From a virus (lineage: Duplodnaviria > Caudoviricetes): a DNA stretch of 64,000 nt. Location: positions 1,338 through 65,337 of IMG/VR virus record IMGVR_UViG_2778261398_000002, one strand, 5' to 3'. Of the stretch, positions 4,328 through 63,142 are shown piece after piece. How positions within the stretch are numbered: position 1 is the stretch's first letter; every line of letters starts with the position of its first letter. The notes under the pieces are model-generated. The model made no database searches. It was not told the origin of the DNA and was given only the letters and a program-made list of their open reading frames with translations. The position numbers were made by a program, and so were the translations under genes.

Positions 4328-4344
4328 TATCAACCCTATATCAT
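4328..4344 (+). promoter_or_regulatory. putative early (vRNAP) promoter
   Basis: TATCAACCCTATATCAT; one of eight aligned 17-mers. Confidence 0.7.
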
Positions 4345-47109: not shown

Positions 47110-47310
47110 TTGTTGTCAGTAATGACAAATCTCGTAGGTCTGATCTCCTCGACGATGTTTTCGCTGGCACTGTTTTTGATTGGACTCAATCGGTGTGAAG
47201 AACCCGAGTTTGTTCCAGAAGAAAATAGTGTCGTCGAACCTGTTGTCTTGGAAGTCGCCATCGAGTCAGTACCGCATGGCTTCGGGCTATGTATGGGCTG
47301 CCCTTGTTGA
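47110..47310 (+). CDS. possible small membrane protein
   Basis: Hydrophobic N-half and acidic C-half; its 3' end overlaps hairpins of the structured region. Confidence 0.35.
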   Translation: MLSVMTNLVGLISSTMFSLALFLIGLNRCEEPEFVPEENSVVEPVVLEVAIESVPHGFGLCMGCPC

Positions 47311-47500
47311 CACCTTATAGATCTTACAAGGGAACATATCTCAGACATACCGATTAAGTTCGGATTACATGCTCGGATATAGTCCGAGCTAGCAGCACGG
47401 TTGTGACAACGTCACCGCCCCAGGGAAGGTTAGTGAGTTCTAGACATGCGAGGTCTAGTTCCACGCCCACCCCCTGGGCTGGTGGCTATCCACTTTTTTA
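47301..47500 (+). ncRNA. candidate structured ncRNA A
   Basis: No ORF; stems CCCTTGT/ACAAGGG, GCTCGGA/TCCGAGC, GTGAC/GTCAC, CCCAGGG/CCCTGGG, CTAGAC/GTCTAG; ends GTGG-CTAT-CCAC-T6. Confidence 0.5.
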
Positions 47501-47513
47501 TTTGTTCGAGTTT

Positions 47514-47680
47514 CTAATTGTAAAAGTGTAATTATATGGCGAGTTTGCGCAAGCCAAAACGTTCTTTTACAATTAGTGGCTCTACCGAGCAGCACAGGCT
47601 GCATTTTGTGTGCCCTTCTCAAAGGGTTACCGACCTTAGGGTCACCATCTGCATCTAGCCCCGCTTCGGCGGGGCTTTAT
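47514..47680 (+). ncRNA. candidate structured ncRNA B
   Basis: Perfect 13-bp inverted repeat (47514-47526 / 47564-47576), further hairpins, strong terminator AGCCCCGC-TTCG-GCGGGGCT. Confidence 0.45.
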
Positions 47681-47732
47681 GTTCGTTTTTACTTACAAGA
47701 CGGATAATCCGATAAGAACAGGAGAAAAGGAA

Positions 47733-48059
47733 ATGTCTAACGGAATACGCATTATACTGTCCGACAAAGAGCAGAACGACAAACACCTACTTGACATCGT
47801 TGGTTCTGCCCACGCTTGGCCATCGTGGGATATCATGGCTGCCATTGCAGCCGAGAAAGAACCGACTATCTGGATCGTTACCCCGCATGCGGCTAGCGTG
47901 TTCGGCAAGATCAACACCATGTTTAAAGTAACGCGCGGCGTCGCGCTGATTAACGGAGAGTATACAATCTTTGGGTCGGATGGTGAATGGACGGGCAGCC
48001 AGATCAACATTGTACGAAAAAACACTCTAGAGTCCATGCGAGGCTACCGTGAGTATTAA
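47733..48059 (+). CDS. hypothetical protein
   Basis: 108 aa, AAGGA RBS. Confidence 0.65.
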   Translation: MSNGIRIILSDKEQNDKHLLDIVGSAHAWPSWDIMAAIAAEKEPTIWIVTPHAASVFGKINTMFKVTRGVALINGEYTIFGSDGEWTGSQINIVRKNTLESMRGYREY

Positions 48060-50285: not shown

Positions 50286-50609
50286 ATGAAAATCAAAGAC
50301 ACAACACTGATCAATGACATGCTCGTGTTCCTGGCCAAGGACTCCGACAAGGTAGTCGGCCGCGTAGACTTTCTCGCCAAGACGAGAATGGGTGTTCGTG
50401 TTGACGACACCATCCAACTGTCATTCGACGTTGTCGACCGCGACGACAGCCTCACCCTCGGCGACACCGTATCGATCGCCGTCGGCACCGGCGAGATTCA
50501 AATTGTTGAATCTGCCTTCAAAGAAGACAAGTCAGAAACCAAGCGGAAGAAAGAACCGTCGTCTGCCGGTTGTTCGTCCAAGATCAGTCTGACTGCCGAG
50601 CGTCTCTGA
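50286..50609 (+). CDS. hypothetical protein
   Basis: 107 aa, AAGGTG RBS, beta-rich pattern. Confidence 0.65.
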   Translation: MKIKDTTLINDMLVFLAKDSDKVVGRVDFLAKTRMGVRVDDTIQLSFDVVDRDDSLTLGDTVSIAVGTGEIQIVESAFKEDKSETKRKKEPSSAGCSSKISLTAERL

Positions 50610-51791: not shown

Positions 51792-51861
51792 AGAACTGGT
51801 CTTTGGTTTTATAGTCAACAGCAACGATGTCTACTCAAGGTAGACGATTAAGGAGAAAGAG

Positions 51862-52071
51862 ATGTCCATTGAAATCCTCGAAACTGACGATGCCGTAGAA
51901 CAACTGCAAGATGTTTTTCAAACGTGGCAGGGCGAGATCCCTTCTGCGGGCGAGCTGGTTGCTTTCGTCGAGGCATTGGAAACCAACGGTCTGGGTCTGG
52001 TAGTAGTTGAAGAAAGTCCCTCTGTTGAATCCGATGACGACGCGGACGAAGAAACCGTGGAGGACGACTAG
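51862..52071 (+). CDS. small acidic hypothetical protein
   Basis: 69 aa, AAGGAG RBS. Confidence 0.7.
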   Translation: MSIEILETDDAVEQLQDVFQTWQGEIPSAGELVAFVEALETNGLGLVVVEESPSVESDDDADEETVEDD

Positions 52072-52078
52072 GTAAATT

Positions 52079-52627
52079 AATACCTGAATCGCCCTATGTA
52101 TGAGGGAGTATTCACTCGAGTGTTTCCTGCCACAGTCAAGACTTCAGAACCCCCGTACACAGAAATCGCTGGTGGGCAGGAAACCATTAACATGTTGACC
52201 GTTATCACGACGGTCATAAAAGAGCGTCGCTGGGGTGGGCACGACCACCTCAGCAATTGCGCCGTCGAGGCTATTCGTGTTAGCCATCGCAAACCGACTC
52301 ACCTAGGAATGCGGGACGACAAGGTGACCTTCCGAGGCTTGAACACTATTTCGGCTTCGGACTTAGGCTGAGAGGCCAGCCATAGGGCCAAATCGTTAGG
52401 GTGATGCCCAAGCCCAAACGACTCCACTACCTGAGGGCTAGTCCTGGTGCAAGGATGAAGTGCGCATACTGAGGTCGCACCGACCGATGAAAAAGGCGTT
52501 GAGTTGTGTCGGGACCTGACCCGACGCTGGGCGACAAGCCAATGGTTGTGTCGTAGCTAAAAGCTGCTCAAACGGAGAAAGCCCCGCTGGGAAACCAGCG
52601 GGGTTCTATTCGCTTTTTTTTCTTTTT
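52079..52627 (+). ncRNA. candidate large structured ncRNA (~550 nt)
   Basis: About ten consecutive stems, no ORF with an RBS, strong terminator GCCCCGCTGG-GAAA-CCAGCGGGGT plus T-run. Confidence 0.6.
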
Positions 52628-52668
52628 GTGTAGAAGTATGGTATGGAGCCCCTCACCGGAGAATACCC

Positions 52669-52929
52669 ATGCTTCGATGCGCCTCACCGGATGTGTACGA
52701 TACATTCGACTACAGGGTATGGCTCATTGGGAAGGATATCTTAGTTAAGCTGGGATACGTTGTCATCGAGAAGCATACCTGCACGGAAATACGAGATCCA
52801 ACCAACAACCATCTCTATGCGATCTGGTTTAACCAGTGCGCACGCGAGGTGCGGGGAGGATGGATCATGAGACACTCAGTGGCTGGCCACGATGATGAGC
52901 TCAAAAAACATTTCAAAAGGGAGGCTTAG
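52669..52929 (+). CDS. hypothetical protein
   Basis: 86 aa, GGAG RBS. Confidence 0.55.
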   Translation: MLRCASPDVYDTFDYRVWLIGKDILVKLGYVVIEKHTCTEIRDPTNNHLYAIWFNQCAREVRGGWIMRHSVAGHDDELKKHFKREA

Positions 52930-52940
52930 GCCTCCCTTTA
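52917..52940 (+). terminator. intrinsic terminator
   Basis: AAGGGAGGC-TTAG-GCCTCCCTT. Confidence 0.75.
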
Positions 52941-53042
52941 TGTCGCTAAGGCCTCTATTAGCTCCTGTGAGAACGTTTCTGGGATATTTTTACCTACCCC
53001 ACCTATTCTATGCTAACGAGGCACAGAGAGCATTCTAAGAAG

Positions 53043-53059
53043 TTTAAGACATACATCAT
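53043..53059 (+). promoter_or_regulatory. putative early promoter
   Basis: TTTAAGACATACATCAT at the head of the paralogue operon. Confidence 0.7.
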
Positions 53060-53091
53060 AACTGTGTAGCACCAACCCAACTGGATTGCTT

Positions 53092-53463
53092 ATGGTGAAT
53101 AAAGCGTTATTTATCTACGACGTTTCTTGCTTAATAGAAGACGTTCGTGACGAACTGAAGAACCTCCTAGAAAGGTTCAAGGTTGGCGATGATCCGGTCC
53201 CTCACGATCGCAATGGCAACACACTAAACGACTACATCGTTTACTGTATTCGTGACAGACTGGTAGAATTGCATTACATGGTCTTTGATGAACATCGAAT
53301 ATGGGCCCTCCGACTACCGGAAGAGACACGTAATGCGATTCGACAACTCGACATTCGGGAGCCAGATCGGCTCTACGGACAAATAACAATCCCAATCGAA
53401 TACCAGTGCCGTTATGCAGACCTGCGTCTGGTTGGCAGCGATCTGTATATTCACTTTGACTAG
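53092..53463 (+). CDS. hypothetical protein, putative paralogue family member 1
   Basis: ALFIYDVSCLIEDV...LVGSDLYIHF. Confidence 0.65.
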   Translation: MVNKALFIYDVSCLIEDVRDELKNLLERFKVGDDPVPHDRNGNTLNDYIVYCIRDRLVELHYMVFDEHRIWALRLPEETRNAIRQLDIREPDRLYGQITIPIEYQCRYADLRLVGSDLYIHFD

Positions 53464-61181: not shown

Positions 61182-61243
61182 GATAGGACATACCAGAACA
61201 GGTGTGTTTGCGCAAACAAAACCTATGTAGAAGGAAGATAAAG

Positions 61244-63142
61244 ATGGCAGTTAAACGCGGTGGTGGTGATAACCACATCCCTGGGAACGAAGAAGCAACA
61301 GTAATCGGTGGTCAGAAGTCGGCTACTGTATCTCGCCGTGGTGGTCTGTCGGCGCTGGCCGGTCCCTTTGGTGGCCCGATGTCCCGCACCGGCGCCAGCA
61401 AGGGCGTGACTGAATTCGCAGATGCCTTCAAGGCGCTGCTTGAGAAGGAAGTCGAAAGCAAAGAACTGGGCTTCAAGGTAACCATCCTCGACAGCTCTAT
61501 CAGCAACGCGGCATTGAGCGCCATCATCATCACGCTGCTCCGCAGCCAGGGCGGCAAAGAGTGCGTCACCGCGCACACCATGCTGGTCGAAAACTCCGGT
61601 AAGCTGATGCCGCGCACCGTTACGGTCGGCCAGAAGCAGTTCGAATTCGCTGTCACTGCCGGTGACGTAGCAGACAACAGTCTGATGGCTGAAGTCAAGC
61701 AAGCGGTTACCGACCTGTTCGGCGGTCGCAATGTTCAGGTCGTCGACGCCGGCGCATCGGTCATCCCGACCGAGCTGTCCATCGATGACGAGCAACACGT
61801 TCGCAATGTGCTGTACGGGGCAACTGTTGCCTGCTGGACCACCATGGTCAGCCTGGGCTTCATCGACGAGCCGCCGTTCACCGCTGAATGGGTTGAAGAT
61901 GGCAACCGTCTGCAATCCACCATCCACTTCAACCCGGCTGATCCGGCCGAAACCCTGGCGGGCCTGCCGGTCCGTAACGACATCGAAGTTGTCCTGCAAG
62001 GTTCGGTCTCGAGCCAGAGCAATGGTCAGATGGAACGTGCAATCGACATCACCAAGGTGACCGGTTACACTGACATCATCTACACGCCGCCTCAGTCGGC
62101 ACAGCAGCACAGCTTCTTCAACCAGAACCAACCGGTACAGATCGAACCGTACTTCACTCCGGTGTTCGTAATGACTTCGCTGGCTACCGAGATCAGCGCT
62201 GCCACCATGGAACTGCACCTGGCCGGTATCGCCAGTACTCTGGTTCTGCTGAACGGCACTGGTGCCGGCGTACCGCCGTGGATGAACGGTTTCCGTCAGA
62301 ACTACCGCATCAAGGCAAACGAAGTTGATGTTCGCGACATTGGCGCGATCGGCTACTTCATGAACCTGACCGGTGATCCGAATGCCAAGCCGACCCCCGT
62401 CGCTACCAAACTGGACAGCTTCGGTACTCGTGGTCTGTACAGCCTGCTGCACGCTGCACTGCACCCGGGCCTGGTGTTCGCCATGGATGTCGAAGAAGTA
62501 TCCGACACCTCCTGGATCAACCTGGCGTTCATCGCTGCTGCCGGTGGCAACCGCGAAGCCATTGCGCTGATCAACGGTGCGGCAGACACCCTGACTCTTG
62601 GTAACTTCTCCAAGATCTGGGACGCAAGCCAACCGATCGCCTACGACACTCAGAACCGTATCCACACCGGGTACTACTTCGATGACGCTGGCGTGAAACG
62701 CGACCTGCGTGACCTGGACCAGCTGGCCATGGCCAACCTGGTTGGTGGCTCTGATCGCGATGCAGCGATTCTGTGGGGCGACAGCTTCTCCCGTACCGAC
62801 ATCCCTGGTGTCGAGCGTCTGGAGCGTCGTGAGCAGATGATCCGCACTCGCTTCCAGTCCGTCAAGTTCAAGGGCTACGCTCGTCGTATCAACTTCAACC
62901 CGAACTGGCTGGCCGCTCTGGGCGAAGCGTGCGCCGCCGCCGGTCTCCGTATCCAACCCAATAACCCGACTCAAGAGTTCGGTGATGCGGGTCGTCACGG
63001 TGATCCGAACGCAATGCAGTACGCAATGCAGGGTGTTAACAGCAACCTGTTCAGCTTCACTGGCAACCAACGTACCTTCGGTGCGTCCTTCAGCCAGCCG
63101 AGCTTCGGTGGTAGCTACCGTCGTCCGGGTGGTGGACTCTGA
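61244..63142 (+). CDS. chmA: chimallin, major phage nuclear shell protein (phiKZ gp54 / 201phi2-1 gp105-like)
   Basis: 632 aa, highly biased codon usage, flexible Gly-rich termini, located directly upstream of nvRNAP beta' and near the DNA polymerase. Confidence 0.82.
   Translation: MAVKRGGGDNHIPGNEEATVIGGQKSATVSRRGGLSALAGPFGGPMSRTGASKGVTEFADAFKALLEKEVESKELGFKVTILDSSISNAALSAIIITLLRSQGGKECVTAHTMLVENSGKLMPRTVTVGQKQFEFAVTAGDVADNSLMAEVKQAVTDLFGGRNVQVVDAGASVIPTELSIDDEQHVRNVLYGATVACWTTMVSLGFIDEPPFTAEWVEDGNRLQSTIHFNPADPAETLAGLPVRNDIEVVLQGSVSSQSNGQMERAIDITKVTGYTDIIYTPPQSAQQHSFFNQNQPVQIEPYFTPVFVMTSLATEISAATMELHLAGIASTLVLLNGTGAGVPPWMNGFRQNYRIKANEVDVRDIGAIGYFMNLTGDPNAKPTPVATKLDSFGTRGLYSLLHAALHPGLVFAMDVEEVSDTSWINLAFIAAAGGNREAIALINGAADTLTLGNFSKIWDASQPIAYDTQNRIHTGYYFDDAGVKRDLRDLDQLAMANLVGGSDRDAAILWGDSFSRTDIPGVERLERREQMIRTRFQSVKFKGYARRINFNPNWLAALGEACAAAGLRIQPNNPTQEFGDAGRHGDPNAMQYAMQGVNSNLFSFTGNQRTFGASFSQPSFGGSYRRPGGGL

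Follow-up and report, generated by a model that had tools for sequence, protein, structure and literature searches.

What does the 549-nt stretch at positions 52079-52627 of this phage contig encode: a large structured RNA of a new kind, as a preliminary description had proposed, or a small gene whose message happens to be strongly folded? The window, by which we mean the whole stretch of 64,000 nt that was analysed, makes up nearly all of a 65-kb IMG/VR contig that is itself estimated at 24% of its genome. A chimallin-type nuclear shell protein is encoded at 61202-63142, and the contig also encodes a multisubunit RNA polymerase beta-like subunit, a DNA polymerase and a large terminase. Judging from this set of genes, the phage is a Chimalliviridae-like, nucleus-forming jumbo phage. 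In DNA polymerase it is only 49% identical to its nearest relatives, whether cultured or in IMG/VR, and the sequencing runs that contain the stretch are marine (Tara Oceans-type assemblies) together with one vent metagenome at about 98% identity. The features of the locus are as follows:

52095-52102, plus strand: tandem TATGTATG, a candidate phiKZ-type (non-virion RNA polymerase) promoter recognised in the sequence, with putative start sites at G52098 and G52102
52096-52371, plus strand: orphan open reading frame (ORF) of uncertain coding status, 91 codons from ATG 52096 (no Shine-Dalgarno sequence) or 83 from GTG 52120
52104-52108, plus strand: GGGAG, Shine-Dalgarno-like, 11 nt before GTG 52120, picked from the sequence by a start-site scan
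52120-52185, plus strand: 16-pair helix with a 31-nt interior (mean pair probability 0.72), in which the GTG start codon is buried
52196-52361, plus strand: local hairpins within the ORF, at 52196-52216, 52229-52254, 52269-52285 and 52331-52361 (pair probabilities 0.90-1.00)
52372-52580, plus strand: non-coding, GC-rich array of predicted hairpins, at 52441-56, 52473-85, 52508-25, 52533-52 and 52553-67
52580-52627, plus strand: intrinsic terminator with a GAAA loop, a GC-rich stem of 10-11 bp (52580-52605) and a U-rich tract including T8 at 52615-52622 (pair probability 0.99)
52171-52690, strand not given: RNA-library span, covered by contigs from three samples of one study

Plus-strand structure of the stretch

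The stems that the preliminary description had read from the letters were all found in place when checked against the sequence (among them 52122-31/52175-84, 52196-202/52210-16 and 52229-38/52245-54, the last with one G-U pair), as was the GAAA-capped stem of 10-11 bp at 52580-52605 followed by its U-rich tract. Minimum free energy (MFE) and partition-function folds reproduced these stems, with most local hairpins at a mean pair probability of 0.8-1.0. Folding better than dinucleotide-shuffled controls had been set as a test of the RNA proposal, and the plus strand folded at -208.7 kcal/mol against -179.4 ± 6.2 kcal/mol for the shuffles (z = -4.75; 0 of 100 shuffles were as good), with a z of -4.38 when only the interval from the putative start site to the terminator was considered. 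The minus strand of 52079-52627 reached a z of only -1.84. For the sub-interval 52171-52627 the corresponding values were -6.0 (plus) and -2.1 (minus), although this interval was picked post hoc after the RNA cover and is no independent test.

Hairpins of at least 7 bp, with G-U pairs allowed, numbered 8 on the plus strand against a genome average of 3.9 (top 1.9% of windows), and 5, without enrichment, on the minus strand. Perfect Watson-Crick palindromes of at least 7 bp numbered only 2, again without enrichment, and a tenth of windows have as many. Since stability above shuffles is confined to the plus strand and is joined there by an excess of G-U hairpins, the strand asymmetry is real and the structure RNA-like, which bears out the suggestion that the G-U pairs favour function as RNA on the plus strand.

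Nine hairpins had a mean pair probability of at least 0.8, and all confident pairs were local. The MFE fold consists of about 12 local hairpins; every long-range helix in it had a pair probability of 0.28-0.42, and one of these low-probability helices pairs an A-run with the U tract of the terminator. The predicted architecture is a chain of hairpins, unlike the junction-rich ROOL, GOLLD or OLE. The likeness to these ornate RNAs that had been suggested for the stretch was therefore not borne out: its long-range helices are weak, its confident part is made of local hairpins, and several windows of the contig that overlap ORFs are equally or more structured. ROOL, GOLLD and OLE are in a similar size range and some of these RNAs occur in phages, but the stretch has no covariance-model match, no confident long-range multi-helix junctions and no conservation of the kind that marks them. 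Local hairpins without confident long-range helices are what is expected of a structured mRNA or untranslated region (UTR) rather than of an ornate RNA.

How the stretch compares with the rest of the contig was assessed by regressing MFE on base composition across all windows of the contig, as the sequence of this phage tends to be more structured than its own shuffles. The 549-nt stretch ranked 8th of 347 windows (-2.26 SD), outranked by the 47138-47869 region and by four further ORF-overlapping loci, and at the 300-nt scale its windows lay only -0.65 to -2.1 SD from expectation. The stretch is structured, yet it is no unique outlier among the windows of this genome.

The statement that the stretch resembles no known RNA class was confirmed, as no Rfam 15 family reached its gathering score anywhere in the window. 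Within 51800-52900 at E<=10 the best Rfam score was 16 bits against a gathering score of 68, and ARAGORN found 0 tRNA or tmRNA genes in the window. A group I/II intron was rejected: no intron model matched at E<=10, the upstream ORF69 ends in an acidic tail and two in-frame stops, and neither flank matches a protein family. Type III toxin-antitoxin-like and other repeat RNAs were likewise rejected, the stretch containing no tandem repeats, no repeat family longer than 15 nt and no motif common to its hairpins.

From 52372 to the terminator, the tail has no plus-strand ORF that reaches 30 aa, and none of its frames shows a coding signal. Its GC content is 56%, against 37-51% in the other non-coding gaps of at least 100 nt of the contig and 53% in coding sequence; this fits selection for stable stems, or a foreign origin. 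The z score of the tail is -1.77 without the terminator and -3.5 with it. The terminator itself has the form expected of an intrinsic one, with a stem of 10 pairs (52581-52590/52595-52604) followed by UUCUAUUCGCUUUUUUUU, and a consensus scan flags an overlapping stem at 52597-52614 plus a T run. One RNA-library contig has T9 in place of T8 in the U tract (52613-52622), either a length variant or slippage.

The ORF and the TATG motifs before it

The stretch had been described as intergenic. This stands for 52372-52622, which is clearly non-coding, and fails for the 5' half, which is filled by the ORF at 52096-52371. The codon log-odds score of the ORF was 0.139 per codon, against 0.22 ± 0.13 in 25 held-out probable genes, -0.21 ± 0.20 in spurious ORFs inside genes and -0.16 ± 0.14 in ORFs of shuffled regions. 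When the region was dinucleotide-shuffled 3000 times, the longest ORFs seldom scored as high (P = 0.019), and the total score was likewise unusual (P = 0.004). Under a 3-periodic Markov model the ORF scored 0.020, against 0.167 ± 0.071 for small genes and -0.218 ± 0.098 for shuffles (P = 0.01), lower than 22 of 23 small genes. Its off-frames scored as they do in real genes, and public gene callers also called it. Its length is unremarkable, arising by chance in 12-18% of shuffles (18% for at least 83 codons). The coding statistics of the ORF are thus intermediate between those of real genes and those of chance ORFs.

No homologue of the product was found among 1.84 billion representative proteins, in Pfam or in PHROGs, and an HNH-like reading of its WGGHDHLSN...H segment was rejected, with no Pfam match even at E<=10. 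The predicted product had a pLDDT of 0.37 (ESM Atlas) and 39.6 (AF2), against 0.64 (ESM Atlas) for a neighbouring orphan gene; the AF2 single-sequence models of this ORF (ORF91, 39.6) and of the downstream ORF86 (50.4) were both low and do not discriminate between the two. Opening the ribosome site at the GTG would cost 10.4 kcal/mol, which places it among the highest 8.5% of the phage's genes. Weighing these results, we consider translation of the ORF probable, if by a modest margin. Translation of this frame had been named in advance as the observation that would tell against an RNA element, and the objection applies in part: the Shine-Dalgarno sequence, the TATG spacing and the codon statistics are gene-like.

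Two TATG motifs had also been noticed at the 5' end, and both are present, at 52095 and 52099, which places them at -25 and -21 relative to the in-frame GTG 52120. On the plus strand TATGTATG occurs only twice in the 64 kb (52095 and 47288). TATG lies 20-40 nt upstream of start codons 14 times against 2.2 expected (about six-fold, P = 1e-7), and 10 such cases, before other genes, remain when the two units discussed here are left out. Over the whole contig, about half as many TATG motifs occur as expected (132 and 90 on the two strands, against about 250), and one stands at -20 of the chimallin gene. The non-virion RNA polymerase of phiKZ has TATG as its late promoter, with the G as the start site, and TATG by itself is insufficient for promoter activity (PMC4666361). 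The scarcity of the motif together with its upstream enrichment fits a TATG promoter element like that of phiKZ in this distant marine phage. TATG would be common to both phages, whereas the tandem duplication (TATGTATG) is a feature of this contig, where the start site is a predicted one.

When a tandem was defined as TATG, 0-4 nt, TATG, there were three plus-strand occurrences in the 64 kb (47288, 52095 and 52637), and all three head strongly folded, terminator-ended units. The two tandems on the minus strand are not comparable: one, at 53050-53060, was set aside because it is the reverse complement of an early promoter at 53043, and the other lies inside a gene. The stretch itself contains no early-promoter motif. 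A 17-nt motif with the consensus TTTCAACCATATATCAT was found at 4328, 25649, 40102, 43836, 49578, 53043, 60677 and 61165, with 2-4 mismatches each; there were no other occurrences on the plus strand at <=4 mismatches, and none inside the stretch.

Homologues, further copies and RNA-library cover

We found no diverged relative of the locus. A blastn search of 51800-52950 against 50,697 phage records gave no match; the flanking proteins and the DNA polymerase, searched against IMG/VR and JGI metagenomes, led to no homologue of the locus; and nhmmer, blastn and tblastn gave no match over 83 chimallivirus loci gathered through a DNA-polymerase alignment (nearest 49% identical). A covariance model of 52372-52560 found nothing credible over the same 83 loci and five whole relative genomes, its match in locus L017 being rejected as gapped, antisense to a gene and missing from close kin. 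In a phmmer search against 1.84 billion representatives, ORF91 retrieved only itself and P0003; the latter is a 5x tandem-repeat protein in which five weak repeat scores add up, and was judged a chance match. The sole match to the ORF in the JGI metagenomes (L085) was likewise discarded, as only the seeded word RRWGGHDHLS is common to the two, in an Arg-rich frame of high-GC DNA. The flanking small genes ORF69, ORF86 and the 240-aa ORF also had no detectable homologues, the last of these matching only itself among 5.8 billion proteins. A decayed paralogue, whether of the downstream gene array or of another protein of the window, is not recognisable either: no such similarity was found, for the tail included.

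Copies of the locus itself were recovered. Exact-protein look-ups yielded seven further contigs with the flanking genes, six of them from Tara Oceans assemblies, and these were 100% identical across the parts of the stretch that they cover. The vent-metagenome contig is about 98% identical and reaches only 52220, with a single change past the upstream gene. The copies thus offer no variation from which covariation or dN/dS could be derived. Short DNA contigs from several independent assemblies end inside the stretch, between 52123 and 52616 (right ends at 52123, 52192, 52220, 52239 and 52340; left ends at 52555 and 52616), and in 5 of 6 contigs fetched by a flanking protein the shorter arm points into the region. 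These breaks could reflect poor sequencing cover of the GC-rich hairpins or strain-level variation.

RNA evidence came from assembled Logan contigs of three marine metatranscriptome samples of one study, which carry no strand or end information. The contigs covered 52271-52690 at a depth of 24.5 (sample X2), 52228-52558 at 14.7 (X4) and 52171-52447 at 8.4 (X7); other pieces of the phage in X2, within the 6 kb compared, had depths of 5-10, so that the stretch was the deepest-covered piece of these 6 kb. Flanking ORF86, and ORF69 upstream of 52009, were uncovered in all three samples, although missing contigs are no evidence of silence. As the runs were selected for containing the query, only the contrast within the query is informative. 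Two wastewater runs showed small word shares, which carry no weight. The stretch is real and transcribed, and this contrast suggests that its RNA accumulates above that of its neighbours. One RNA contig (52009-52158) spans the stop codon of the upstream gene, so some read-through enters the unit; another extends 68 nt beyond the U tract, so either termination is incomplete or transcripts overlap there.

Readings of the locus and its neighbouring units

The reading that we prefer, although we hold the balance for and against it to be about even, is a small gene particular to this lineage, followed by a hairpin-rich 3' UTR of 250 nt that ends in an intrinsic terminator. The locus would then be one lineage-specific accessory transcription unit of a marine chimallivirus. 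Transcription would begin at the tandem TATG (52095-52102), if this is used as a promoter, and run through a short leader with GGGAG into the small orphan ORF, presumably translated as 83 codons from GTG 52120 or 91 from ATG 52096. A 250-nt non-coding, GC-rich tail of local hairpins would follow, closed by the intrinsic terminator at 52580-52622. The RNA of 550 nt would be an mRNA with a strongly structured body and a long, strongly structured 3' UTR, and the chain of hairpins and the terminator stem may protect it from 3'-to-5' decay; a stable 3' fragment might also accumulate. We propose that the RNA-library cover is the deepest of the neighbourhood because the hairpin tail and terminator give such protection.

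Transcription units of phiKZ and 201phi2-1 (PMC11512511, PMC8244752) share this layout, with a promoter motif, a short leader, a Shine-Dalgarno sequence, a small ORF and a GC-rich stem with a U tract, and in the stretch, too, TATG stands at a gene-like distance. Unlike the ordinary layout, the 3' UTR here is about 250 nt long with 56% GC, far longer and GC-richer than the other gaps of the contig, and the ORF is putative. Several results count against the gene: the intermediate coding signal, the lack of a homologue, the low pLDDT, the buried GTG, an ORF length within reach of chance, this unusual UTR, and RNA contigs that begin at 52171-52271 instead of at the putative start site, although contig ends are unreliable. 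If the mRNA reading is true, nothing is out of the ordinary about this accessory gene of an uncultured marine jumbo phage except the length of its structured tail.

The first alternative is a true non-coding RNA (ncRNA) of about 450-520 nt, reaching the terminator from the tandem TATG promoter or from a site of read-through processing and acting, for example, as a protein sponge or scaffold, with the ORF as a chance frame. We regard this as rather unlikely, although much of the evidence sits well with it. The plus-strand fold is stable, with z at -4.75 overall and -6.0 in 52171-52627, the minus strand giving -1.8 to -2.1; G-U-dependent hairpins are enriched on the plus strand only, the GC content exceeds that of every other non-coding gap, and the stretch is the deepest-covered piece in three RNA samples. 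The predicted protein has neither fold nor relatives, its start codon is sequestered, 18% of shuffles contain a frame of 83 codons or more by chance, and the other plus-strand TATGTATG, at 47288, heads an ORF-free, structured (z = -3.73), terminator-ended unit of 200 nt. Against an ncRNA stand the absence of a homologue and hence of covariation, the absence of an Rfam match and of a confident long-range architecture, the rank of the stretch among the genome's windows, where it is no outlier, and codon statistics that chance rarely gives, found together with a promoter motif, a Shine-Dalgarno sequence and a start codon at gene-like spacing. Of the new large RNA element first proposed, then, the stems, the plus-strand stability, the terminator, the TATG motifs and the lack of a known family all stand, and the sequence is present in RNA libraries, whereas the ornate class is not supported and the ORF has gene-like signals.

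Nucleus-forming jumbo phages do produce small RNAs, among them sRNA005 of 201phi2-1 and the gp182-leader sRNA of phiKZ (PMC11512511). These are likewise phage-encoded, structured and terminator-ended, and were found by transcriptomics; they are under 250 nt, mostly derived from 5' UTRs, and one is conserved across genera, whereas the stretch is about 520 nt long, carries an ORF and has no homologue. In its strongest form the non-coding reading makes the locus an abundant structured ncRNA of roughly 450-520 nt, transcribed by the phage RNA polymerase from the tandem TATG, and one of two or three such units (with 47295-47497 and possibly 52640-52945), so that lineage-specific large phage ncRNAs would take part in nucleus-based infection; we think this unlikely. 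Were the stretch non-coding, no RNA of its size (about 500 nt) would have been reported before from a nucleus-forming phage, the sRNAs described to date all being under 250 nt (PMC11512511). The tandem-TATG pattern could also define the way in which the lineage produces its most stable late transcripts.

The second alternative, that the stretch is functionless, is also unlikely. It would be decaying or recently acquired DNA (a dying gene and its remnant) in a hypervariable accessory region, transcribed by upstream read-through, with structure as a by-product of GC content. The tested flanking genes (ORF69, ORF86 and the 240-aa ORF) lack homologues too, in a phage whose nearest relatives are at 49% in DNA polymerase; the intermediate coding score is as expected of a degrading or foreign gene; the RNA contig at 52009-52158 bridges the upstream stop into the stretch; and the structure is only -2.3 SD from the genome's expectation. 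Against this, composition-preserving shuffles are beaten on one strand only (z = -4.75), the ORF runs unbroken for 91 codons, and no protein of the window is similar, so that the mark of a decayed paralogue is missing. The identity among independent Tara Oceans assemblies, with the vent contig at about 98% up to 52220, argues for persistence, but on a short time scale. A DNA-level element, whose inverted repeats would be protein-binding or recombination sites, is very improbable: inverted repeats are many in this non-conserved region, but only 2 are perfect Watson-Crick stems of at least 7 bp (matched by a tenth of windows), the excess is G-U-dependent and confined to one strand rather than giving equal stability on both, and no repeated motif is common to the hairpins.

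The unit at 47288-47500 is a cleaner ncRNA candidate than 52079-52627. There, TATGTATG (47288-47295) heads an ORF-free stretch of about 200 nt (z = -3.73) that ends in a stem and T6 at about 47497, and two windows here, 47138-47686 and 47321-47869, come 1st and 3rd in structure among the 347; the unit has no Rfam match. The two loci were rejected as paralogues, having nothing in common beyond CTATGTATG.

Downstream of the stretch, the tandem TATG at 52637 (TATGGTATG) lies 27-32 nt before ORF86 (52669-52929), and the unit at 52637-52945 (z = -3.85) ends in a bidirectional terminator at 52908-52940. The coding-model score of ORF86 is poor (-0.11). Within the window ORF86 weakly resembles the gene that follows, 53092-53463 (phmmer E = 0.004), so it may belong to the downstream paralogue array as a diverged or truncated member. 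In the nearest cultured relative, Xanthomonas phage Xoo-sp14, an unannotated gap of 604 nt (L002:5127-5730; z = -4.5) occupies a similar place, upstream of a small-gene array before the DNA polymerase; it has no sequence similarity to the stretch and may contain an unannotated ORF. Finally, just upstream of an HslV-like protease pair lies the 107-aa orphan gene at 50286-50609 (ESM Atlas pLDDT 0.64). Among the structures nearest to its predicted product are cold-shock/OB proteins and the OB domains of proteasomal AAA ATPases, the resemblance being weak (TM 0.45-0.52), and the product is a possible accessory of the phage protease.
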